IMG/VR virus record: IMGVR_UViG_3300046557_000835
Strand: one strand, 5' to 3'
DNA length: 40,157 bases
Source of the DNA: a virus
Taxonomy: Duplodnaviria; Heunggongvirae; Uroviricota; Caudoviricetes
This document shows positions 14,365-38,145 of the stretch, piece after piece (the stretch's first letter is position 1; each line of letters begins with the position of its first letter). The notes beneath the pieces are model-generated. The model saw only the letters and a list, made by a program, of their open reading frames with translations. It did not search any database and was not told the origin of the DNA. The position numbers and the translations under genes were made by a program.

Positions 14365-16620
14365 TTACGCGGCGCGACGCAGTTCGTGCAGGTTCGGCAT
14401 GGCGCGGTGAGCCGGGTGGGTCGGACGATACGCATCCCAGGTCATTTCCATACCCGAGCATGCCCAGACGTGGTTGACCGTTTGCAGCGAACGCGAACCA
14501 TCGAGTGGGATGACATTGCGATCCACTGCCCGGGCGATCCGGGTCGGCGACTCCGCCTCGAAGATGCTCCAGCACATGGCTTTGTGGGTTTCCACGCTGT
14601 TGTTCCGGTCGAGAATTTCTGCGGCCGTCAACGTGCCCGAGTAGGAGATCACGATGCGAATTTCCGATTCACCGTACGCTTTGGTCGGCTGATTACGGAT
14701 ACGCTCTGAATACTTGTCTGCATTCGACAGCGTAGCGAGCACACCAGCGTGCTGACGACGAGTCGAGGCCACGGCCGACCAACTATCGGCGATCTTCTCT
14801 AGCATGATGATCGACAGCGGGGCGATCCGGATTGGTTCTTCGGTGGTCACGATGTTACCCGACGCGCCACGGTACGTAACCGGGGTGAAGGTCGACGGGT
14901 ACAGACGTTGGATGTCCGCCACCATGTTCTTCAGCATCAGTTCATGGTCCGAACGCATGTACAGCACCACGTGACCCTTCGACAGGATGTATGACAGGTG
15001 CGACAGCGGGCTGGAGCCATATTCGCCGTTGCGGAAGATCGCAGCTTGCTTCGGTACCGTAATAGCGTAGAAGCCCAGCAGGTATTCCCACGCACGCGAC
15101 AGATCTTGCGGGCGCTCGTTCTGCACACGGATCAGTTGCTGCATCATTTGACCACGACGCTGACGGTCTTGTACGCCGAGGATACGCACGACTTCTTTGT
15201 ACATATCGCGTGCGGCACCATTGATGATGTGTTCATACAAACGACCAGGAATCATGCGGTTATTCACCGCTGCTTGGTCGAAGATCATCTCAGCGCGGTT
15301 GCCATCGGCATCCACCGGCATGTCTTCATCTTCCCAGATGGAGACCACCACCCCTTTACCACCGAACAAGTCCGTGAACTTGTTACCCATGTTCGGGATG
15401 ATCTTGTTCTTGATAGTGAACTCGATCCGGTAATCGTCGATCCGGGTTTTCTTGTGGACCTTGACGACGGTGTTGTTGTCTTGATTCGGGGTGAGGACCG
15501 AGATCGCTTCGATGATCAGGTTGTGCAGCTGCGGTTGCAGATCGGGTGCCCGACCCATTTGACGCTGGATGTCATTCCACCAACGCAAAATCCCGGCCAG
15601 GAATTCCCGGCGACCCGCGTCGTACTTCAGTGGTTGCACTTCCATGACCGCTGGGGTGCCGGCGATGCCCGTGTTGGTGTCGTGGTGCACCTTGATGTCG
15701 ATCACTTCGCCGTCGGCGACGATCTTTTCATCGAACATGAAGTCAACACGGCGGCACGCATTCACGCTCATCTCGGCGATTGCCAGGTCTGGGCGGTACG
15801 TGCGCAGCGCCATCAAGATCCCATCGGGGTTGATCTTTTCGCCGATGTCTGGGTGGATCTTATAGTCCGATGGGTCGTTCGGGTTCCCGTACAGATTCAA
15901 CGGGAATTGGTGCTGACCGAACTCCACTGTACGACGCTCGAAGGTGTTGAACCCGAACTTCTTCAGCGCGCCACGGGAAATCACAATCCCGTCTTCAGCC
16001 ACATCACGCAGGCCCATCATGGCGACGTTGATGGTCACGCTAAAGCCGTAATCGCTGCCTTTGTCCGGATCGTCCATATCGGTGATAACGCCTGGCGAAT
16101 CACGGAACACATGGTCCTTCTCGATGGTTTGACCGATGTGAACCCCCATCCCTTTGTCGACATAGCTAAAGCCGAGGTAGGGGTGAAATGTACTGTAGTC
16201 CGTCAAGCTTACCATGCCGTACTCATAGTCGGCGCTAGCGTCAAACGAACGGAACACCAACACCGTTTGCGGCGGGCTGGTCTTGAACGAAGTCTCCCCT
16301 TCTTTACGTTCATAACGGTGGTAAATGCCGATGATCTGGCCTTTTGCTGGCATGCGCTGCGAGAACGTGGTGTCGACCAGCAGGGTGTCCATGCCTGTCT
16401 GGATAATCCGTTCTGTTACACCGTCAACCACGACGATCTGTCCCAAGTTGTTACCATACATCTGCTTACGCGAAGCGGAGATCGCGGCGTTGAACGCGTT
16501 GACCGCCATGATGCTTTCGCCTTGCGGAAAATGCTCATTGGGAACAGGCAGTGACGGTTTGATTTCCCGGTAGGTGGTCGGGTAACCTAAGTCGACACGT
16601 GCTGGATCATTGTGACTCAT
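14365..16620 (-). CDS. Non-virion RNAP beta C-terminal subunit (phiKZ gp71-73-like), uninterrupted
   Basis: RKQMYGNN, VAEDGIVIS, GNKFTDLFGGKGVV, NRMIPGRLYE and KAYGESE. ATG at 16620 has SD AAGGA. Confidence 0.9.
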   Translation of the reverse strand: MSHNDPARVDLGYPTTYREIKPSLPVPNEHFPQGESIMAVNAFNAAISASRKQMYGNNLGQIVVVDGVTERIIQTGMDTLLVDTTFSQRMPAKGQIIGIYHRYERKEGETSFKTSPPQTVLVFRSFDASADYEYGMVSLTDYSTFHPYLGFSYVDKGMGVHIGQTIEKDHVFRDSPGVITDMDDPDKGSDYGFSVTINVAMMGLRDVAEDGIVISRGALKKFGFNTFERRTVEFGQHQFPLNLYGNPNDPSDYKIHPDIGEKINPDGILMALRTYRPDLAIAEMSVNACRRVDFMFDEKIVADGEVIDIKVHHDTNTGIAGTPAVMEVQPLKYDAGRREFLAGILRWWNDIQRQMGRAPDLQPQLHNLIIEAISVLTPNQDNNTVVKVHKKTRIDDYRIEFTIKNKIIPNMGNKFTDLFGGKGVVVSIWEDEDMPVDADGNRAEMIFDQAAVNNRMIPGRLYEHIINGAARDMYKEVVRILGVQDRQRRGQMMQQLIRVQNERPQDLSRAWEYLLGFYAITVPKQAAIFRNGEYGSSPLSHLSYILSKGHVVLYMRSDHELMLKNMVADIQRLYPSTFTPVTYRGASGNIVTTEEPIRIAPLSIIMLEKIADSWSAVASTRRQHAGVLATLSNADKYSERIRNQPTKAYGESEIRIVISYSGTLTAAEILDRNNSVETHKAMCWSIFEAESPTRIARAVDRNVIPLDGSRSLQTVNHVWACSGMEMTWDAYRPTHPAHRAMPNLHELRRAA

Positions 16621-16687
16621 ACACATCCTTTTTGTAAATAAGACGAACGACTTTTTGTTATTACTTATGGAGTCCTTGACTCTATTT

Positions 16688-16697
16688 TAGTGATATA
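16688..16697 (-). promoter_or_regulatory. Early-type promoter motif TATATCACTA
   Basis: Identical 10-mer also at 21952 and 32343, each upstream of a minus-strand gene; resembles the phiKZ early consensus TATATTAC. Confidence 0.65.
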
Positions 16698-20213: not shown

Positions 20214-21905
20214 TTAAAAGCTCCTGGTAGCAATGCTGATTGCGAGTTCAGCAAAACGGTTACGGAAATTTGGTTTGACGGTGTAGCGACGGCCGCCTTC
20301 GTGGTCACCCAACATTTTAACCCAAGGTGTCGGGATGTTGAGCAGCCACTGGTAATGCACCAAACTGTTGGAAATCGAATCGATCAGGGCGCTGGCGGGA
20401 TTGACCAGCTTGATCGTTTTGGGGTTATCGTTACGCAGTTTACCTGCGGGCCGTTGGGCGTAAGGCCAGTGTTGGTCTAACGCCTTCTTGTTCTCATCGG
20501 TCAGAGCGATGGGGGCTGGGCTACCGCCGGTCGAATTGCCATCCCGGTCGGTCATCGGTGACGCTGTCATCAGGGCCGCGATGTCGTAGAAGTCACGGTA
20601 GCACAGCAACGCTGCGCCAACTGCCATCATGTTCAGGTCTTCGATGAGGTTCATCTCATCGATACCACGTGGCGGGAAGATAGCATCCCAACGATCTTGG
20701 AAACGCGGATCGATTTCCCACGCACCATCGCGTTGCCGGCATTCAGCACCCAGCACATTTTGCAGGATCGTGAACTGGAATTGCTTCGGCGGGTTGCGGC
20801 GCAGCGGTTCAACTGCTTTCATGCCGAGGTCGAGCCAGCTTTCCGGCTGCATTTCCGGATGCATGCGCTCGATGAACATCTCGGGAGACCTGGCACTGGC
20901 TTCCAGCAGCGTCAAGTCACCAGCAGCAAACGGCTCCCGGATCTTGATCAGTTCCGACACCGATGCCCGATTTTCTTGGTCATTGCCCGACACACCGTTG
21001 TCCGGAATCTTCGGCTTGACCCGTTCGTTGTACGCCCGGTCAGCACCTTCGAGATGCTGCTCGATGAACGAGTATACCCGACCCACGAGCGAGAAGTTCG
21101 GATCACGGCCCGAGATATCGACCCATGCCAAACGCCGTACCAGCAGAATTGCCATGGTTTGGATTTGCGCGTCTTCCTTGGGGACGCTACCTTCCATGGC
21201 CGAGTTCTTGAACTTGTCCGGCGTCAGGTAAATGTTGATGTAGTTTTCCAAGCGCTTCCAGCCGTCGGTTTCCACCAAGGCAGTCTTGGTCGCGAGGCGC
21301 AGCGCATAGATCTCCTTGTAATGGTTGTTGACAGTGGAATCGATGTTGCCCAGGAAGCGACCCCAAATCGGCGTCAGCATCCGCGACAGCATCACCAGAA
21401 CGATCAGACCCCAGTAATCCTTTTCCAGATAGGTGGCTTCGGCAGGGCGATTGCGCAGACCGAAGTTCTCACCACGTTGGGCCGACTCTTCGTGGGTCTT
21501 GTAGACCCGGATGTTGGCGGGGAACACAATGCTCGGCGTACCATGCACCCAGTTTGCCACATTGTCCGGCGGGCAGATCATGAAAATGCGCTTGACGAGA
21601 GGTGGAATTCGTTTGCGCAGATCCTGGATGTCATTGTGCCCGTGCGGTTGCAGGATGTGGTGGATTTGGCTGTAGATGTCGAACAGCTCGTTTTGCTTCT
21701 GGACTGGCAGTTGATAGAAATACTGGTTGAGTTGTTCGAAGGGATCGACGTACGGATTCTCTTCGCCCAACGGGTCTTTGTTGCGGTTGGCGTTTTTGTT
21801 ACCACGCTCCAAAATCTTTACATCCCACGTCAGTTCCTGGCCGGCGTGTTCAATCACAACGTTCGAATTTTTGTCGGAAGCTGCAGACACTTTCCTAAAT
21901 CTCAC
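20214..21905 (-). CDS. Probable nvRNAP promoter-specificity subunit (phiKZ gp68 position)
   Basis: 563 aa, GTG start with SD AGGAG; assigned by synteny in the ChmC-gp68-gp69-gp70-beta-beta' block. Confidence 0.6.
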   Translation of the reverse strand: MRFRKVSAASDKNSNVVIEHAGQELTWDVKILERGNKNANRNKDPLGEENPYVDPFEQLNQYFYQLPVQKQNELFDIYSQIHHILQPHGHNDIQDLRKRIPPLVKRIFMICPPDNVANWVHGTPSIVFPANIRVYKTHEESAQRGENFGLRNRPAEATYLEKDYWGLIVLVMLSRMLTPIWGRFLGNIDSTVNNHYKEIYALRLATKTALVETDGWKRLENYINIYLTPDKFKNSAMEGSVPKEDAQIQTMAILLVRRLAWVDISGRDPNFSLVGRVYSFIEQHLEGADRAYNERVKPKIPDNGVSGNDQENRASVSELIKIREPFAAGDLTLLEASARSPEMFIERMHPEMQPESWLDLGMKAVEPLRRNPPKQFQFTILQNVLGAECRQRDGAWEIDPRFQDRWDAIFPPRGIDEMNLIEDLNMMAVGAALLCYRDFYDIAALMTASPMTDRDGNSTGGSPAPIALTDENKKALDQHWPYAQRPAGKLRNDNPKTIKLVNPASALIDSISNSLVHYQWLLNIPTPWVKMLGDHEGGRRYTVKPNFRNRFAELAISIATRSF

Positions 21906-21951: not shown

Positions 21952-21961
21952 TAGTGATATA
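21952..21961 (-). promoter_or_regulatory. Early-type promoter motif TATATCACTA
   Basis: Second identical copy, 47 nt upstream of the gp68-position start. Confidence 0.65.
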
Positions 21962-26126: not shown

Positions 26127-26753
26127 TTATAGCATCTCGCCAGATTTGGAAGTTGGATCACTCATGGAGTGGGCCAATGCGTAGCGCACTGCCTTCCACG
26201 TATTCGTGACCGCAACCTGTTCTGGCAGAATCAGTTCACGATCACCTTCCATGAGTTCTTCGATGTAGATCTCCGCTTTCCAACCATGCGGTGTATCTTC
26301 ATCCCCAGGCACCATCTGCACCATGCCGTTCATCACGCGGCGGTAGTTATAGTTGTCGTCCCCGTACTGGTTCGGGAACGGGTTTGTATAACCATAGCCT
26401 TCGCAGCGTCCTTGGTCGTACATCTTGGCCAAACTTGGTTCAGCCATGATGTACCGCTGCATCACCGGGGCGGCTTGCTGGATGTCGTAGATCGACGTCA
26501 GCTGGACGATACGGTCCTCCTGGAAGTAGCTCTTCACACGCGAGATCCCGACGCGGGCACGGTGAATCGCTTCGTCACTGTAAAAGGATTGATACGCATC
26601 GACCACACCCTGGGCGAACTGGTGACCAGTGCGCTGGATGTAACCACCGATAACTTGGGCTTGCTCACGTACATATTGCAACATGGACGGATGAGGCTCA
26701 CCTGCGGTGAAGAGGTTGAGCTCTGCCTCACCACCGTAAAACGCGGTTGCCAT
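26127..26753 (-). CDS. Hypothetical protein
   Basis: 208 aa ORF; ATG abuts the upstream TAA. Confidence 0.72.
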   Translation of the reverse strand: MATAFYGGEAELNLFTAGEPHPSMLQYVREQAQVIGGYIQRTGHQFAQGVVDAYQSFYSDEAIHRARVGISRVKSYFQEDRIVQLTSIYDIQQAAPVMQRYIMAEPSLAKMYDQGRCEGYGYTNPFPNQYGDDNYNYRRVMNGMVQMVPGDEDTPHGWKAEIYIEELMEGDRELILPEQVAVTNTWKAVRYALAHSMSDPTSKSGEML

Positions 26754-27257: not shown

Positions 27258-28775
27258 TGCGAGCCCTTACGGACTCATTGTATTAACTGAACGGATAAAT
27301 TTTCAGTTAACTTTTATCGTTTCTATCGTTGTTGTATTCAAACCACATCCGGGCTGGACCCCTTGACATGATCTAACATTTTACTGACGTTCTGCTCTTC
27401 GTAATACACTACTGTCCAATCCCCTAAACGACGAAGATTGTTTTTACCTAAAGCGTAAAACACAACTGGCCTGGTAAGTTTGCTGTGTGCAATAAACTCC
27501 GCAGCACTTTCGTACAGGTAAAGTTGCTCACGGCTATGATGCCATGCCGCTACTTGCTTCTTACCATGCCCGCGCGCTTTCTCGATGTCGGCTTCCGTAA
27601 TGTCTTGGAAGTCGTGATCGAGGTAAGCTACTTGGTATTGCTTTTTGAAAATCCTTACCACATCGCGATACGGGATCGCTTGGTGGATATGACTAGGATA
27701 CGTATCGAAGTGTTTACCGGCAGCGATGAATGATTCAAACTCCAACACTTCACCGGTATCGATATTGCGGAACTTCACACCTCTGATAGGTACTTTGCCG
27801 TCATCTACTTTACGTTCTTTGATCTTTTCTTTTTGAAGTTCCTTCGGAATACTACCCGAGTACTTCTTAAACGAAAAGCGCCAGCCTTCGACAGGTTTCT
27901 CGTCTTTAATCGAATCCCAAACCATCAAGTGCGGTACACCGGTCTTCTCTTCTGCATCCCACACACTCATGAAACCTTGAGTTAGTCGAGTATTTGCATC
28001 GCGATTAATTCGCTCACCTACAACGCAGAAGCGATGATTGTCTTTCTTCATCACTTTTAGGTGGATGTTATTCTGCAAAGGAGTAACCCATTCGACATTA
28101 TCTGCTCGATTATTGGCAGGATTCAAGTCTCGGTGATTAACGTAATTTTTTTCTCCCACGGGCTCACCATGAAAGGCGAAAGCAATCAGACGATGAACGC
28201 CGGCGGTAATCTGTTTCTTCAAACCAAATTCAATAACTTCTAAATTAACGGTAACGTATTTATCGCCATTAGCGTAGGTGTTTCTTTTGACCATGTCTTG
28301 GTCGTAGATGCCGCCTTCCGAATCTGCCAGAAACCCGAGTGTTCCTGGAATAGGTTTTATCTCCATGGGTTTCCTTTCTGTGTTTATTACAATACGAAAA
28401 CGATAGAAACTACTGGTTCGCTACACCAGCACCATTGATGTCCAGTCAATGATTACCGACACTTTCATGCCGGGCTAGACCATATCTTCATTCTTTCGAA
28501 TGCTTTCCGTTTCGGCCCCCGCTTGGGATAGACGATTGAACAGTCGTCTACTTGTAAGCCTACTCTACTCCCTTGTCCTATTGCTAGGCGGTTTCGATGG
28601 TCGTTGATCGCACTTCTGCTCTAGAAGCTTTGAGGCGGATTACCCAATTCTTTTCGTTGTTACCATACCCGAGATCATTACATCGGCCGCTGATACATTT
28701 CTGGATCAGGTTGGTAGAAAAGACTCTAAGGGACTTCCCGCGGTTAGGAAAGTTTAACGACAGCGATGAGTATTT
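27258..28775 (-). mobile_element. Group I intron (IA-like, 1518 nt) in the RNAP active-site codons
   Basis: P1: exon CGACGGU pairs with GCUGUCG with the U-G wobble at the splice site. P10: CUCAUC pairs with exon 2 GAUGAG. P/Q: CGCGGGAA and AAUCCGC. P3: CUUUCC/GGAAAG. R: UCAACGACCA (28595-28609). S: AAGAUAUGGUCU (28475-28489). P8 and P9 have GAAA loops. Confidence 0.92.
27338..28366 (-). CDS. Intron-encoded HNH homing endonuclease with NUMOD-type DNA-binding repeats
   Basis: VHRLIAFAF...VNHRDLNPANNRADNVEW (HNH); repeated F.S...A motifs (FMSVWDAE, FESFIAAG, YESAAEF); visibly more AT-rich than the flanks. Confidence 0.92.
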   Translation of the reverse strand: MEIKPIPGTLGFLADSEGGIYDQDMVKRNTYANGDKYVTVNLEVIEFGLKKQITAGVHRLIAFAFHGEPVGEKNYVNHRDLNPANNRADNVEWVTPLQNNIHLKVMKKDNHRFCVVGERINRDANTRLTQGFMSVWDAEEKTGVPHLMVWDSIKDEKPVEGWRFSFKKYSGSIPKELQKEKIKERKVDDGKVPIRGVKFRNIDTGEVLEFESFIAAGKHFDTYPSHIHQAIPYRDVVRIFKKQYQVAYLDHDFQDITEADIEKARGHGKKQVAAWHHSREQLYLYESAAEFIAHSKLTRPVVFYALGKNNLRRLGDWTVVYYEEQNVSKMLDHVKGSSPDVV

Positions 28776-30113
28776 ACCGTCGAAATCAGCATTGAACCCT
28801 CTGACTGTTAAGATGCTGAGTGATACTGTTTGGTCGGCGGCATCAGTCTTGACCTTGCTGATGTAGAACAACTGCATCGAGCCCAAGCCGAGACTCGGGT
28901 TACGCTGGAAGATCGTGGGCAGACCCTTGACACCGGAGTCTGGTGCCACTTCCCATTTCGATTCATTGATCAGTTCGATGAACAACTCGTTAATCAATGG
29001 GTTGAATTCCGTCGCATAACGGTTCAAGAACCGCCACACTTCGTTGGGCAACCAACCACGTTCTTTGAGCTTCTTCGCTAGGTGTAAACGCAGTAAGCCC
29101 ATGGCTACGCCCCACGGGATGTGGAGTTCGCGGTGGTAGTGGTCCGCCGTCAGCGAAGTAATCACTGCACGGAACGACCAGTCGCAGCGGGTTGCCGCTA
29201 GGTGTTTACGTGAAATGCCCTCCTTCGATGAGAACGACTTCTTGTTGAACTCTTGGTAATACGTGGCCAGATTTGCGATAGCCCGCACCACCCGGTTTTG
29301 GCGCATGGTTGAACTGTAGTTGTTCAGTGGGTCGTCGAGACCGATCAACGATTCGATCGCATCAATCGCAATCGGTACGTTCGAGTCGACATACACCGCC
29401 ATGTCCGTATCCTCGACCACCAACAAGGTTTTGTTAGGTAGGGCGAGTCGTTCCGAGAAGATCTTCTCACGGTTCATCTGCAACAACTTCAGAATGTGAT
29501 GGACCTCGTTCGGATTGTCTTGCTTCTTCTTCCGGAAGTCACTGATGGTCAGCAGCTTCTCAATGATCCCTGGGCCGATGATCTCACCCGTCTTGTCATC
29601 AACGGTGTGGAAGAAGTTTTGAACGAACTTGTTGTAACCCCGCTCGCGTTCCAGCCCCATCGTTTGCAACTGCGCAAAGATCTTGGGGGGTTTGTCCGGC
29701 ACCGGATACTTGGTGTCGCACAACCAGTGGATGACGTTAAACCGCCCTTTCTTGAAGTGGTTCGACAGAATCGTCCAGATGGTTGGGTTGATCAGCTTCG
29801 CGACATCTTTCGGCTGCTTCAACCACACGAGGGATTCCAGCTTTTGCTCCCGGACGTTCATCACGGGTTTGTTGCAGTTGTTGCACACCACCCCGAGGAA
29901 TCGGCGACCTTGCAAACCTTCGCCGGTTGGGCAATGGCAGCGCGGGGTGTTGGTTAGAACGTCATTGGGCTGGTACCGCGTGAAGATCTTCTCTTTGAAC
30001 GCTTTGAGCGCGCTGTCCGAGCATTCCTGGAAATCGTTGATAATGATCGGGTCAGTACGCGACTGGGAAGCCCACAAGTCGTCGTGACTTACAATACGCA
30101 GGTAAGTACCGAT
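28776..30113 (-). CDS. nvRNAP beta' N-terminal (catalytic) subunit, exon 1 (phiKZ gp55-like); probable ATC start
   Basis: Zn-finger CHC...CNNC, KEGISRKHL, FRAVITS, FQRNPSL and RGFNADFDG. No in-frame ATG; GAGGAG lies 6 nt before ATC at 30113. Confidence 0.88.
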
Positions 30114-30232: not shown

Positions 30233-32257
30233 TTAGTACGTGCGGGTGTGCGCCATGCTGCGGTAGCCAGCCTGCGCGCCGCCGCCGTAGGCCGGGCCGT
30301 TCTGGAACATCGTCGGCACGAAGCCGGCGTTGAGCGCACCTGCTTGCGCCAGACCGTACGGCGTACGCATTGCCATGCGGTTGTCCTGCTGGGCGATTTC
30401 GATACGCGGACGCAAACCGGTTTGCTCGATCGACTGGTCTGCCGCACGGATGAAGTCCGGGTGGAAGGTCTTGTGGATCGAGATGCCGGTGTAGGTCACG
30501 TTGTGTACGACCTGCTCGATGATCTTGGCACGGGCGGCCAGTTGAGCATCGTTGCTGCCACCGAAGGTAGCGGCCCAGCGGCGGCCGATTTCCGGATCTT
30601 CGTGACCCTTGGCGTTCATGACGAACAGCAGGTCCACGTTGCGCAGGTCTTGCGGACGACCGTCGCCGTCGATGTAGAAACCATTCAGCACGCGCTCGGC
30701 GCGCGGCAGGACGATCAGGCGGCTCGACTGCGGGGTGAAGAACAGCTGGCTGAAACGGTTGTCCGTCAGGGCGTCCATCGCCGACACGATCGCCTGGTAG
30801 GCTTCCGGCACATCGCTAGCTTCAGCGAAGATACGGGTGAACCAGGTTTCCGCACCAGCGATACCGCAGTCGATCGACAGCGCCGGCGCCGGCTGGATGA
30901 TTGCGTTGACCAGCGCGTAGTAATTCTCGATGCCGAACTCGTTCTGGTTGTTGGTCGGGAACGGTGCCACGACCATCTGGCCGTCGACCATGGTTTTCAG
31001 GCCGTAGTCGAAGTTCAGGGCGCCCAGGTCACGCGGACGGAAGTTGTCGTGACGGGTCGGCGACGCGCCGTTCATTTGCAGGTGACGCGGCAGGAAGTTG
31101 CGCAGCCACGGACGCTCTTGCGAGTTCAGCACCGCGAAGATCGTCGACAGCTGCAGCAGGACATTGCCGAGGTCCGGGGTCAGGCGCATGTCGAAACCGG
31201 TCATGGTCACTTCAGCGCTGTATTCCTGGGTGGCTTCGTTGCCTTGCTGCGCCGGCATGCCCATGTAACGGTTGGCACGTGCCGGGACCGGATCGATATT
31301 CAGGGTGATCGAGGCCAGGGTGGTGCCCAGGTCCATCACGCCTGCGGTGTTTTCGGTCTGGTCGGCGCGGTTGGTCTGACGCGGCTGCTCCGAACGGAAG
31401 GCTGCGACGACTTCGCCACGGATCGGATTGCCGGCCGGGTCGAATGCTTCCACCGGGGGGTTGACCTGGTCTTGGTTGAAGTGCACCGAGTTGACCAGGA
31501 TGCCGTCGCCGGCGACGCTCGACAGGCTGTCGTAACGGAAACCCGGGGTCTTGGTTTCCAGTTCGGTCCAGCAGGCGCGCAGTGCGTTCAGGAACAGGGT
31601 GGCGACAGCGACCGGATCGTTGATCTTGAAGCTGGTCGGCACCGTGGTCCAGTCGGCGTTGATCAGGTTGCTCTGCGGGACGATCTGCGCGACGCGGAAA
31701 CGGATGACCTTGGCCAGGGCTTCGTCGGCCAGGGTTGCCGGGGTACGCGGAGCGGTGATCTGCTCTTGTGCGTACTGACCGTACAGTTCGTTGGTGCGGG
31801 TCGGTGCGGTCATCGACATGTCGGACGCGATCAGCAGGGTGTGGTAGGCGACGCGGTTGTCCGAGCCTTCGACGATGACCATGATCAGGCCGATCGCGTT
31901 GCTGTTGTTCTCGGCGCCGATGATCGAACCGCGGGTTGCCGGGACGATGCGGACGTTGATACCGTTCAGGTCGGTGGTCTTCTGGGTCTCGTAGTAATCT
32001 TGCAGTTTCTTCGCCAGTTCGGCGACATCGCGGCCACCGTTCTGCGGCATGCCGCCGATGCGACCACGGCTCAGCAGAGCGCTGATGCCACCCGGACGGG
32101 CGCCGCCGACGGGAGCGCCACCTTGCGGCGGCTGCTGATAGTTGGCTTGACCCTGGCCGGCTTGACCGGCGGCTTGGGTGTAGGCTTGTGCCATCTGGTC
32201 ATTCTGTTGGCCACCGGTGTTGGTGTTCGGGGCCGGGTTCTGGGTACCAGTTTTCAT
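30233..32257 (-). CDS. chmA: Chimallin, phage nuclear shell protein
   Basis: 674 aa with a Q/G-rich N-terminal tail. Segments GNPIRGEVV, RDLGALNF, DGDGRPQDLRNVDLL and VTYTG...FIRAAD match chimallin as I recall it, and it sits directly upstream of the nvRNAP beta' N gene. Confidence 0.88.
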   Translation of the reverse strand: MKTGTQNPAPNTNTGGQQNDQMAQAYTQAAGQAGQGQANYQQPPQGGAPVGGARPGGISALLSRGRIGGMPQNGGRDVAELAKKLQDYYETQKTTDLNGINVRIVPATRGSIIGAENNSNAIGLIMVIVEGSDNRVAYHTLLIASDMSMTAPTRTNELYGQYAQEQITAPRTPATLADEALAKVIRFRVAQIVPQSNLINADWTTVPTSFKINDPVAVATLFLNALRACWTELETKTPGFRYDSLSSVAGDGILVNSVHFNQDQVNPPVEAFDPAGNPIRGEVVAAFRSEQPRQTNRADQTENTAGVMDLGTTLASITLNIDPVPARANRYMGMPAQQGNEATQEYSAEVTMTGFDMRLTPDLGNVLLQLSTIFAVLNSQERPWLRNFLPRHLQMNGASPTRHDNFRPRDLGALNFDYGLKTMVDGQMVVAPFPTNNQNEFGIENYYALVNAIIQPAPALSIDCGIAGAETWFTRIFAEASDVPEAYQAIVSAMDALTDNRFSQLFFTPQSSRLIVLPRAERVLNGFYIDGDGRPQDLRNVDLLFVMNAKGHEDPEIGRRWAATFGGSNDAQLAARAKIIEQVVHNVTYTGISIHKTFHPDFIRAADQSIEQTGLRPRIEIAQQDNRMAMRTPYGLAQAGALNAGFVPTMFQNGPAYGGGAQAGYRSMAHTRTY

Positions 32258-32342
32258 GCTGTTTCCTTTTTGTCGTAAAGATTTTGTTAATTTGTTTGCG
32301 CAAACAAACTTGTAACCGCGGCTATCTCTAGCTAGGTCAGTT

Positions 32343-32352
32343 TAGTGATATA
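32343..32352 (-). promoter_or_regulatory. Early-type promoter motif TATATCACTA upstream of chimallin
   Basis: Third identical copy, 86 nt upstream of the chimallin ATG. Confidence 0.65.
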
Positions 32353-35107: not shown

Positions 35108-37252
35108 TTAATAATAGTCCATGGCCAATTGGCTCAAGTCATCGTGGTTAAAGTAGAATCCAATCGTTTCCAATACCAAGTAAAACATGGCAGTTGCTTT
35201 TTGCACGATCTTACGTACATCCACCGCATTCATGATCTCATCCGGAATACCCTTGGACGAAACAATGGGGAGTGGTAACTGCAAGGACGTGATCTTATCC
35301 CGGTTGTTTTCTTCCAACCAGTTCCGCATCGCCGCCGCGATGGTTTGGTCCGGCATCTTTTCCAGCCAGTTGTTGGTCTTGGTCTTGCTGTCCAACTCCA
35401 GACTCACGTAAATCGCTTTGTACGGAGGCGGGGCGATCTTGCCATACTTCTGCCCGAACACGTCGTTCCACATGCCGTACTGTTTGTAAGTGGAGGTTTC
35501 AGCGCCGTTTTTGTAAGCGGCCGGGTCTTTGACCGTGCTGAGTTTGAGGAATTTGAATTCTCCTTTGCGGATCGACTCCACGATACTGCGCTCCAGGTCA
35601 GCCACTTCCTTCACATACTTCAGGGCACTAATTTTACCCGTGGTCATGATGTCGTCCATGATGGCGAGCATCATGTTCTCGTTTTGCTTGACCAGCGCTT
35701 TCGGAGCGTTCGAGGATTTCAAGTGCACGCCCTTGATTTCCTTCTTCAGCTTCTTCATGATATTGCCTTCTTGGCAGCTGATCTGGGCGTAGTAATGCTT
35801 ACCCAGCTGCGTCAAGGCAAAGACGTCGAACTTGAATTCGTTCTTCATCTCAATCGTAAAGGCGTGGTCGCGGCCGATACCCACGTTGGCCGACATCTTG
35901 GCCAGGATGTGCACAATCGACTGCGAGGCCAAGAAGATCATAGTCGCGCAGATCGCGTCGTAGGTCGCGTCAAACTTGACTTGCTTGCAATACCAGATGA
36001 TCCAGTCTTGGGTGGTGAAGATGGTCGAGTCGGTATCGGACACCAACACCACACGGCGCAGGCTGCTCGGCAACATCGCAATCGACGCTGGCAGATTGTC
36101 GGTGGCCCAGAAGGTGCGGATCAAGTCGGCGTAATGCCAGAGCGTGATCGCGATCCGTTCGGTTTGCGCTGCCACCAACCCATAGCCGTGTGGGTCGTTG
36201 GTCTGGATATCTTTCAGCGACTTGCCTTTGGTGACTTCAGGCTGGAGTTGCTTGGCTAGGTTGAGGAAGTCTTCTGGCCATTTTTTGATGACGCTGGCGG
36301 GATCGGCCACAGGTACATCCACCCGTTGAATAAGGCGTCCCATAAAAGCGCGTACAAAATCATCATTGAACTCCTTCAATTGGTACATGTCGCCAGTGTA
36401 CACATACGCTGCGCGTTGTACCGGGGTTAATCGGTTGATGAGATCACGAATCCGGTTGTAACCGGGCTTCGAGTTCCAATACAATTTGGCCGAACGGTAA
36501 ACGACTTCGAAGGTTTCTTCTGCGGTGGGATAATGCAGTTGATACTTTTCCATCACTTGCTCGACTGCTTTCAAGTCGGTGTGCGAGATGATGGAAATAA
36601 TGTTGTAACGGGTGACGTCATACGACCAGTAATGGCGGTTGCTGGCCAAGAACCGTTCGTTGTTGGCGTTACCGTACGCTGAGGTTTGGCGGCACGACGA
36701 GGTCAGCGACGAGTGGCCGGTCTTGTTGGTGATCGGGTTGTGTTCACTCACCATGGCACCGGATACAGCGTTGTTCGCCAGCTTCTCAGTGGTCTGCGAG
36801 CCCTTAAAGAACTTGTAGTTAAAGCTCTCTTCCCCTTCGTCCTGTTCAGCGACGAACATGGCCTTCTTGGCCTTGCCCCGACTTTTCACGTTGTCGTCTT
36901 GGAACTTCGACAATGGCGACAAACGCACCCTCGGGTTGTGATAGGTGGTAAAGGTTGGGGCAAAGATTTGTTCTTGTTGTAAGATCTCACCGATGTACTG
37001 CGACATCGACATGACGCCCTCTTCTCGGTCACCGGTATCGAAATCTCGTTCCAGAAATACCGCGTTTGGTTCTTGCAGCGGGAAGTCACCACCTTCCGAG
37101 AGTTGTTGCTTAACGAATTGACGCGCTTGATCGTAAGGAATACCTGCCATGATCGCCAAGTGATTGGCGTGTTGGTGGACAGCATCGCGGAGCGGATTGA
37201 TATCCCGCTGGTATTCTTCTGCTTTGGAAATGAATGGGCTATCGCGTGACAT
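35108..37252 (-). CDS. Split family-B DNA polymerase, catalytic subunit (phiKZ gp50-like)
   Basis: Motif B KLANNAVSG and motif C VSDTDST; lacks motif A and the exonuclease motifs. Confidence 0.9.
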   Translation of the reverse strand: MSRDSPFISKAEEYQRDINPLRDAVHQHANHLAIMAGIPYDQARQFVKQQLSEGGDFPLQEPNAVFLERDFDTGDREEGVMSMSQYIGEILQQEQIFAPTFTTYHNPRVRLSPLSKFQDDNVKSRGKAKKAMFVAEQDEGEESFNYKFFKGSQTTEKLANNAVSGAMVSEHNPITNKTGHSSLTSSCRQTSAYGNANNERFLASNRHYWSYDVTRYNIISIISHTDLKAVEQVMEKYQLHYPTAEETFEVVYRSAKLYWNSKPGYNRIRDLINRLTPVQRAAYVYTGDMYQLKEFNDDFVRAFMGRLIQRVDVPVADPASVIKKWPEDFLNLAKQLQPEVTKGKSLKDIQTNDPHGYGLVAAQTERIAITLWHYADLIRTFWATDNLPASIAMLPSSLRRVVLVSDTDSTIFTTQDWIIWYCKQVKFDATYDAICATMIFLASQSIVHILAKMSANVGIGRDHAFTIEMKNEFKFDVFALTQLGKHYYAQISCQEGNIMKKLKKEIKGVHLKSSNAPKALVKQNENMMLAIMDDIMTTGKISALKYVKEVADLERSIVESIRKGEFKFLKLSTVKDPAAYKNGAETSTYKQYGMWNDVFGQKYGKIAPPPYKAIYVSLELDSKTKTNNWLEKMPDQTIAAAMRNWLEENNRDKITSLQLPLPIVSSKGIPDEIMNAVDVRKIVQKATAMFYLVLETIGFYFNHDDLSQLAMDYY

Positions 37253-37325
37253 GTTAACATCCTGGTTTGGCTACGTGCTACATCATGAGAACATGTAATA
37301 AAAAAGACCAAAAAAAAGACGTCAT

Positions 37326-37360
37326 AAAAAGCCGCCAAGGCACCCGAAGGCACCTTGGCG
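37326..37360 (-). terminator. Intrinsic terminator with a cUUCGg loop
   Basis: CGCCAAGGUGCC-UUCG-GGUGCCUUGGCG then GCUUUUU; the G-U pairs work only on the minus strand. Confidence 0.85.
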
Positions 37361-37725
37361 ATAAATCCCTGCTTAGGGTATCACGACTTCAAAACAAAAC
37401 CAGTTCTTCATGCTGAACAAGCATGAAAAAAGAATGAGCGGTGTTATCGATCTCAGGGATGTGAAGTGACAAGCAACTACGCCACGTCCATCGGATCAAT
37501 GCACAAAAAGGATTAAAGGCAGATCGACAATTTAGCAAACGCACCAGCTTTCGCCACTTCGCGCCACCTTACGCTACACATCCTTGTTTCACAATAACAC
37601 CGCTCACCACACCACTCCGTCGCAAACAGAGTGTGAGTCGGTCGCTGGGCCAGGTCCCTGCAACCGCCTTCGAGGATGTGTGAAGCCCTCTACTGCACTT
37701 TATACGGATCGCGGATAAAAAACGA
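37361..37725 (-). ncRNA. Candidate structured non-coding RNA
   Basis: No credible ORF. A 13 bp perfect long-range helix (37435-37447 with 37594-37606), a nested helix, two local hairpins, and a terminator at the 3' end. Confidence 0.5.
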
Positions 37726-38145
37726 TTATACCGGCACTGTAGCAATCGATTGGAAGTCGATTGCGCTGATTTTAAATCCGTTGGCGGCCAAGCATTCCAG
37801 CAGCTTGGCTTGGCTGGTACTCGACTCGTTGTCGATGGTAATGCTAAAGCGACCGAGGTTCACCAGTTCCACGGTGCTGAGGTTAACCCACTCCAGCGCG
37901 ATGATCTGGGTCTTACCCGACGGCAGCTTGATTTTCAGATACCGGTACTTGGTCGGATCTTTCTTCTGGGTAGTATCCGGCAACGACGGCGCGATCAACG
38001 CGTGGCGAGCGTAAATATCCTCCCCCAGCGCGATGGCGGTCTCCGCGCTGAGGTTGTCCATGATCAGGACGTTCTTGAAAGCGGTACCCAGTACCGCTAC
38101 GGGATACACACTAAACGAGTAGGTGCCACCGACTTCTACGTTCAT
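37726..38145 (-). CDS. Hypothetical protein
   Basis: 139 aa ORF with SD GGAG. Confidence 0.7.
   Translation of the reverse strand: MNVEVGGTYSFSVYPVAVLGTAFKNVLIMDNLSAETAIALGEDIYARHALIAPSLPDTTQKKDPTKYRYLKIKLPSGKTQIIALEWVNLSTVELVNLGRFSITIDNESSTSQAKLLECLAANGFKISAIDFQSIATVPV

Follow-up and report, generated by a model that had tools for sequence, protein, structure and literature searches.

In the movement, selection and timing of mRNAs in nucleus-forming phages, only proteins have been implicated so far. Phages of the phiKZ type make short noncoding RNAs (ncRNAs), and ChmC binds these as well as mRNA start regions (PMC11077065); short ncRNA candidates have been described for phiKZ, 201phi2-1 and PhiPA3 (PMC8545117, PMC11512511, 10.1101/2023.10.13.562163, PMC11077065). 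In other systems, RNAIII and RsaE use unpaired UCCC loops to bind Shine-Dalgarno (SD) sequences (PMC2790875), and the OLE RNA has an anti-SD mimic to which bS21 binds (PMC12054373). The phage locus described here almost certainly contains a genuine structured RNA gene and, judged by sequence comparison, represents a pseudoknotted ncRNA family that is not yet catalogued and belongs to a single sub-lineage of chimalliviruses.

The window, that is, the whole 40,157-nucleotide stretch of the virus record IMGVR_UViG_3300046557_000835, belongs to Chimalliviridae (nucleus-forming jumbo phages), as indicated by PHROG and Pfam matches for chmA, nvRNAP, a gp49-like SH3DP and a gp50-like polymerase. SH3DP was matched by PHIKZ049 using tblastn, and PF20287 was found on its homologues. 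Among cultured phages, Burkholderia phage FLC9 has the most similar polymerase (46% identity). Between the SH3DP and polymerase genes lies a gap of 473 nt (37253-37725), the largest of the window, with a runner-up of 362 nt; it had been listed in the initial annotation as one of the two largest non-coding gaps. On the minus strand, this gap holds a promoter-like motif, then a predicted RNA of about 375 nt, and finally a phiKZ-type terminator (Table 1). Its G+C content is 52%, and it is not A+T-rich.

Table 1. Positions of the predicted RNA, its structural parts and neighbouring genes in the window
Feature	Position	Strand	Basis or remark
Nuclear shell protein gene (chmA)	30233-32257		PHROG/Pfam
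nvRNAP subunit gene	28584-30077		PHROG/Pfam
Divergent family B DNA polymerase gene (phiKZ gp50-like)	35108..37252	minus	PF20286, phrog_2927
SH3DP gene (phiKZ gp49-like)	37726..38145	minus	phrog_3235; last gene of upstream operon
Promoter-like motif	37695..37722	minus	T-tract, 11 nt, TAT, 4 nt, TG; 16 homologues
Predicted ncRNA, ~375 nt	37320..37698	minus	Folding, covariation; both ends predicted
Conserved structured core of the ncRNA	37698-37435	minus	
P1 hairpin	37672..37690	minus	Loop 37685-37676 = 5' strand of pseudoknot
P2 hairpin	37639..37666	minus	Conserved UGG in loop; self vs cross pairing p<2e-5
P3 hairpin	37613..37633	minus	UUGCG loop conserved in close clade
PK1, 3' strand	37607..37612	minus	Partner 37683-37678
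Rod domain	37435..37606	minus	Closed by P4
P4	37606-37594 / 37447-37435	minus	11/12 pairs compensated, 98.7% of cells paired
P5	37586-37577 / 37463-37454	minus	p=0.001
P5a	37561..37574	minus	Short hairpin at three-way junction; purine-rich loop conserved in close clade
P6 (distal)	37491..37528	minus	Near-symmetric GAUC/GAUC helix, bulged UU and bulged C
Terminal pyrimidine loop	37505..37518	minus	UCCUU core, anti-Shine-Dalgarno-like
Variable 3' hairpin	37407..37427	minus	Insertion only in this phage and two nearest relatives
Intrinsic terminator	37320..37361	minus	cUUCGg hairpin, U-tract, phiKZ-family TTAT tail; covaries
Second T-tract promoter-like motif	37279..37305	minus	Ahead of polymerase gene; kept in relatives

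Several other features of the gene setting were recorded. An HNH endonuclease gene (27338-28366, minus strand), possibly an intron-borne or free homing endonuclease, lies immediately 3' of the nvRNAP subunit gene across a gap of 217 nt. An early-type promoter 8-mer occurs at 32352 (minus strand) in the chmA leader, with further minus-strand copies at 21961, before the ORF 20214-21905, and at 16697, upstream of the RNA polymerase subunit gene 14365-16626. The same leader (32290-32352, minus strand) contains a 20-nt palindrome (32309-32290) that is essentially invariant in five relatives (L005-L009) and sits just ahead of an A-rich SD; it is a candidate operator or RNA hairpin controlling the shell gene.

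The promoter-like motif lies just past the SH3DP stop, with its T-tract, TAT and TG unchanged or nearly so in 16 homologues, and transcription would start near 37698-37696. The motif differs from the early-type 8-mer before chmA (32352), and a sigma-70 promoter gave no match. The TTAT tail of the terminator is a motif described for phiKZ (10.1101/2023.10.13.562163). Minus-strand folding gave a minimum free energy (MFE) of -131 kcal/mol (z -4.26), equalled by none of 100 shuffles, and the plus strand folded with z -3.2; equally good folding of shuffled controls, which the initial annotation had listed as grounds for refutation, was thus not seen on the minus strand. The longest inverted repeat measures 13 bp, compared with at most 11 bp in 150 mononucleotide shuffles. 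All sequence elements named in that annotation were found where it had placed them, namely this perfect repeat (now P4), a nested helix (37586-37574 / 37466-37454), its 9-bp alternative pairing with 37681-37673, the hairpins 37633-37613 and 37427-37407, three copies of a 6-mer (37567, 37557 and 37485), a GAAA 8-mer (37554-37547) and the cUUCGg terminator (37361-37332). Four of these occur only in this phage or its nearest relatives, namely the 9-bp alternative pairing, the GAAA loop, the hairpin 37427-37407 and one of the three 6-mer copies (the third).

Loci of relatives were gathered via the polymerase. Each of the 15 independent relatives whose polymerase identity is 51-84% has kept the long gap, which spans 426-521 nt in 14 of them; in L104 it contains an inserted gene and measures 816 nt. 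Alignments display conserved blocks over about 265 nt, then a variable 3' stretch, and then a covarying terminator. Among 13 aligned sequences, compensatory change altering both sides was observed in 40 of the 62 proposed pairs, and 84.7% of cells pair, a level approached by none of 500 shuffles and by no slid register. The conserved helices hold 92 G-U against 11 A-C combinations, an excess that indicates an RNA on the minus strand and is partly biased since the structure was chosen on that strand. A type I toxin mRNA was rejected, as no ORF is common to 16 homologues and the alignment has many non-triplet indels. A covariance-model search found one copy per genome in five relatives. The proposal of a novel structured phage ncRNA is therefore upheld by a fold that is conserved and covarying in relatives, by strand asymmetry, and by the lack of both a conserved ORF and an Rfam match. 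Comparison among relatives establishes the predicted fold, its strand, the pseudoknot and the unpaired UCCUU loop.

Overall, the predicted fold comprises a 5' domain of three hairpins closed by a pseudoknot, followed by an extended rod that branches at a three-way junction and has an unpaired UCCUU loop at its tip. In the pseudoknot (PK1), the partner of the P1 loop is the 6-nt linker that separates P3 from the long stem. In 13 close homologues, loop and linker match better when both come from one genome than when they come from different genomes (p=0.002), and clear double changes occur in L102-L105. Forming P1 costs merely 0.6 kcal/mol relative to the MFE. Within the rod, a conserved CA/UG step sits between P4 and P5, the P6 region is the most conserved sequence block, and P5a is less certain because its pairing probability varies among homologues. 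The pair probability of P6 is at least 0.66 in 10 of 13 homologues and 0.24 in this phage, whose own MFE structure contains a local alternative to the P5a/P6 consensus, favoured by 2.5 kcal/mol. The consensus fold rests on comparison, and the loop core is unpaired either way. The terminal loop (37515-37505) has an unpaired probability of 0.73-0.96, and among relatives it is a pyrimidine loop of 6-18 nt. Two further interactions were rejected, namely kissing of the P5a loop with the terminal loop (no covariation, p=0.64) and a closing helix joining the 5' and 3' ends (p=0.16).

The initial annotation had interpreted the region as having mutually exclusive pairings, with the nested P5 helix competing against an upstream near-duplicate, and had proposed a pseudoknot or a switch. 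A pseudoknot does exist, but it is a different one, formed by the P1 loop and the linker between P3 and the long stem; a conformational switch is highly improbable. The 9-bp complementarity is genuinely present in this genome, where the near-isoenergetic alternative to P5a/P6 may also permit some local flexibility. However, among relatives the alternative helix pairs no better within than between genomes (p=0.46), and it has an ensemble probability of about 0, costs 10 kcal/mol and would disrupt the covarying P1, PK1, P4 and P5. It arises because the P1 loop and the P5 3' strand happen to resemble each other in this phage. A riboswitch or attenuator was likewise rejected, since the alternative helix is not conserved and the terminator covaries separately, about 75 nt beyond the core.

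The terminal loop is the complement of the A-rich SD motif used by these phages. In the window, the starts that match it best, at -11.8 to -13 kcal/mol, belong to the RNA polymerase subunit (14365-16626), the ORFs 20214-21905 and 26127-26753, the HNH gene and chmA, and the DNA polymerase start gives -6.6. The loops complement the SD hexamers that are commonest in their own genomes: in FLC9, these favour C two bases before the AGG core and the loop has a matching G; in the close relative G001, A is favoured at that position and the loop has U. Across 14 genomes, own-genome starts pair better than foreign ones (p=0.009), with a mean effect of -0.17 kcal/mol that is uncorrected for kinship and composition. 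No covariation of the loop with the genome's own polymerase start was found in this clade (p=0.57-0.75), whereas in distant phages the corresponding match gave p=0.0003 for loops hand-picked by eye and p=0.025 for unbiased loops; as a loop partner, the own polymerase site ranks 13 of 340 in FLC9 and 235 of 277 in G001. Searches of FLC9 and G001 for long antisense targets or second copies returned chance-level short words only, the longest being 18 nt. Since the exposed tip mirrors the phage ribosome-binding sites, the RNA probably acts on translation.

By blastn, the gap had no match among 50,697 phage records, and the FLC9 gap matched itself alone. Covariance models R1 and R2 recover L109 (E 3e-8) and, only just, L110 (E 0.03); more distant elements lie beyond them and were tied in by position, P1 signature, pseudoknot and loop, not by model score. 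Many phages with 40-47% polymerase identity have a structured gap of 400-550 nt, with z down to -7. The P1 signature is common to several of these distant elements and to L106 and L109, the FLC9 gap matches the P1-signature/pseudoknot pattern by eye, and the loop-to-linker pseudoknot covaries in 15 more distant elements (p=0.004, with the loop automatically mis-assigned in some rows). The candidate element of FLC9 lies on the minus strand of record LC667451.1, at about 3244-2790. As a DNA pattern, the P1 signature occurs on 28 viral contigs, 6 times at the SH3DP-polymerase gap and 22 times apparently by chance. The feature found most widely is a large hairpin loop whose core is of UCCUU type, present in 25 of 54 gaps compared with 3.8 expected from shuffles and 6 on the reverse strand, according to a descriptor that was written post hoc and misses the shorter stem of this window. 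In these sequences, the predicted unpaired UCCUU loop is kept more deeply than any other feature. The position of elements sharing only the loop suggests that they are homologous to the RNA of this window, and related elements apparently extend down to about 40% polymerase identity, FLC9 included. In the polymerase tree, the elements fall, with one exception, into one clade (support 0.96), which excludes phiKZ, PhiPA3, 201phi2-1, Noxifer, RAY and Xoo-sp14. At the SH3DP-polymerase position the element is absent from phiKZ, PhiPA3, 201phi2-1 and RAY, the gaps of model phages consisting of terminators and promoters only, and it would therefore not be essential to the nucleus lifestyle.

The SH3DP-polymerase gap is also an insertion hot spot (L104, L022, L023, L025, L033, L040, L043 and L091), the extra genes of many relatives being placed after the structured element and before the polymerase; L025 apparently has a gene immediately after SH3DP and no such element. 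The cultured Ralstonia phage RP31 (L002:3004-3440) has a looser version of the unit (terminator, promoter, structured RNA with a UUCCUU loop, terminator) one gene further upstream, ahead of a second SH3DP-like paralogue. Two pyrimidine loops, not one, were observed in L040:1860-1940 and L011:2730-2815.

The complementarity between loop and SD, together with the lack of a dedicated polymerase-site match in this clade, favours a trans-acting RNA that would engage phage ribosome-binding sites and be encoded by a stand-alone, single-copy ncRNA gene of a Chimalliviridae sub-lineage, an interpretation adopted here tentatively. Such an RNA would be made from its own promoter; in this clade, transcripts of the upstream operon, which lacks a terminator after SH3DP, might also supply it as their 3' end. 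Its pseudoknotted 5' domain could stabilise the RNA or bind protein, and its rod would hold the loop outward, so that the loop may, in the manner of C-rich-loop sRNAs, pair in trans with the A-rich SD sites that the phage's own mRNAs typically carry, and thereby damp or time translation of a set of phage mRNAs, or hold mRNAs for hand-over. However, the effect seen across genomes is small, comes from related genomes and can partly be produced by base composition, and no single target covaries in this clade. In addition, a simple seed needs less than a 375-nt pseudoknotted scaffold, the element is absent from model phages at this position, and U/C-rich loops are also frequent protein sites. A protein-binding scaffold or decoy is doubtful and yet ranks close behind the trans-acting RNA; in it, the loop and the GAUC/GAUC bulge would serve as sites for a phage protein such as ChmC, for host readers of the 16S 3' tail (bS21 and others) or for a host defence RNase cutting UCCUU/UUCCU. 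Sequence conservation is indeed concentrated in bulges and loops, MazF-mt3 and -mt6 recognise exactly these pentamers (PMC5408214), and unannotated phage RNAs are bound by ChmC (PMC11077065). The contact of OLE with bS21 is made through an SD/anti-SD mimic (PMC12054373), but that mimic is a duplex and the loop here is single-stranded. The loop flanks slightly track the phage SD consensus, which a fixed protein site need not do, and no partner gene is linked to the RNA except the universal SH3DP and polymerase genes.

The constant location of the RNA upstream of the polymerase gene and the unusually good loop-polymerase site match in distant phages, FLC9 among them, would suit a cis-acting or dedicated polymerase regulator, whose loop would sequester the polymerase ribosome-binding site on read-through. 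This is rather unlikely, given that the match is absent in this clade, that a strong terminator and a second promoter-like motif intervene, that whole genes are inserted between RNA and polymerase in several relatives, and that the structured gap of RP31 is one gene further upstream. With its size and irregular shape, the rod of about 170 nt might instead mimic an open promoter, as a 6S-like decoy of host or phage RNA polymerase, and P5 may faintly resemble the central region of E. coli 6S RNA. This decoy is very unlikely; RF00013 has no match at the locus in five relatives even at E 10, there is no central bubble at the junction, whose 5' side is occupied by a hairpin and whose 3' side has just 0-3 unpaired bases, and the 5' pseudoknot and the loop would be left unexplained. 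A replication origin, which the initial annotation had raised as an alternative, or a cruciform site would be consistent with the adjoining polymerase gene, the conserved GATC words and the single copy per genome. Nevertheless, the G-U excess (itself partly biased by the minus-strand choice), the covarying pseudoknot, the promoter-terminator framing and the G+C content all speak against a DNA-level role, which is unlikely in the extreme. A more far-reaching possibility, and a rather improbable one, would be a phage ribonucleoprotein adaptor that reads the phage's own SD dialect through a mimic of the rRNA tail and sorts phage mRNAs, either for nuclear export with ChmC or for ordered hand-over to host ribosomes; if true, nucleus-forming phages, whose transcription and translation are uncoupled, would have in this adaptor an RNA part of that system. 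Because a structured, conserved RNA that displays an anti-SD loop is apparently present in cultured FLC9, and in a looser form in RP31, an RNA-based layer can be tested directly. Even if it has no role in translation, it adds an uncatalogued, pseudoknotted RNA family.

With regard to known families, Rfam 15 matched neither this gap nor those at 17 homologous loci, with E values up to 5-10; the initial annotation had recognised no tRNA, tmRNA or small ribozyme. Among the papers searched, none describes such an RNA. tmRNA (RF00023) was rejected on the lack of a match at the locus, unsupported end pairing (p=0.16) and the absence of a conserved ORF; weak partial matches to the tmRNA model (up to 20 bits) cluster at G001:C1:191030-192313 and G002:C1:162667-163138, which are probably tRNA arrays. 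6S RNA (RF00013) was rejected since it has no match at the locus and a three-way junction replaces the bubble, and large bacterial SRP RNA (RF01854) has no match there either. SRP RNA has a helix 8 GNRA tetraloop, SRP54 loops and an Alu loop-loop pseudoknot, whereas a pyrimidine-rich terminal loop and a loop-to-linker pseudoknot are found here. As in Y RNAs, the bulged-C helix of P6 adjoins a pyrimidine loop, and this helix appears to be 1 bp off the vertebrate Ro60 site, of which PMC4201824 gives the 7-mer. Y RNA/YrlA was rejected, as the bacterial GNCGAA motif (PMC4201824) and a tRNA-like domain are both missing. A Ro60/TROVE gene was found in none of 10 related genome records (several complete, with control genomes positive) and not among the scanned window genes.

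The RNA resembles GOLLD, ROOL and OLE in being an ornate, covarying and pseudoknotted orphan RNA, but differs from them in that it is smaller, has no Rfam match or adjoining tRNA genes, and is far less conserved in sequence. With the short ncRNA candidates of phiKZ, 201phi2-1 and PhiPA3 it shares the phage family, the organisation as promoter-to-terminator intergenic units and a possible status as ChmC clients; those candidates, in contrast, are quoted at <250 nt and lie at other loci, and between gp49 and gp50 these three phages have only a short terminator/promoter gap (with a small inserted ORF in 201phi2-1). Compared with S. aureus RNAIII and RsaE-type sRNAs, the RNA has no sequence or Rfam likeness, is phage-encoded, possesses a 5' pseudoknot domain, and usually has a single loop that matches A-rich SD sites, being rich in U around a CC core. 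What it shares with them (PMC2790875) is a structured RNA with its own promoter and terminator, as predicted here, and an unpaired anti-SD pyrimidine loop, and the conserved, unpaired and SD-complementary pyrimidine loop found in this lineage is the feature by which C-rich-loop SD-binding sRNAs are recognised.
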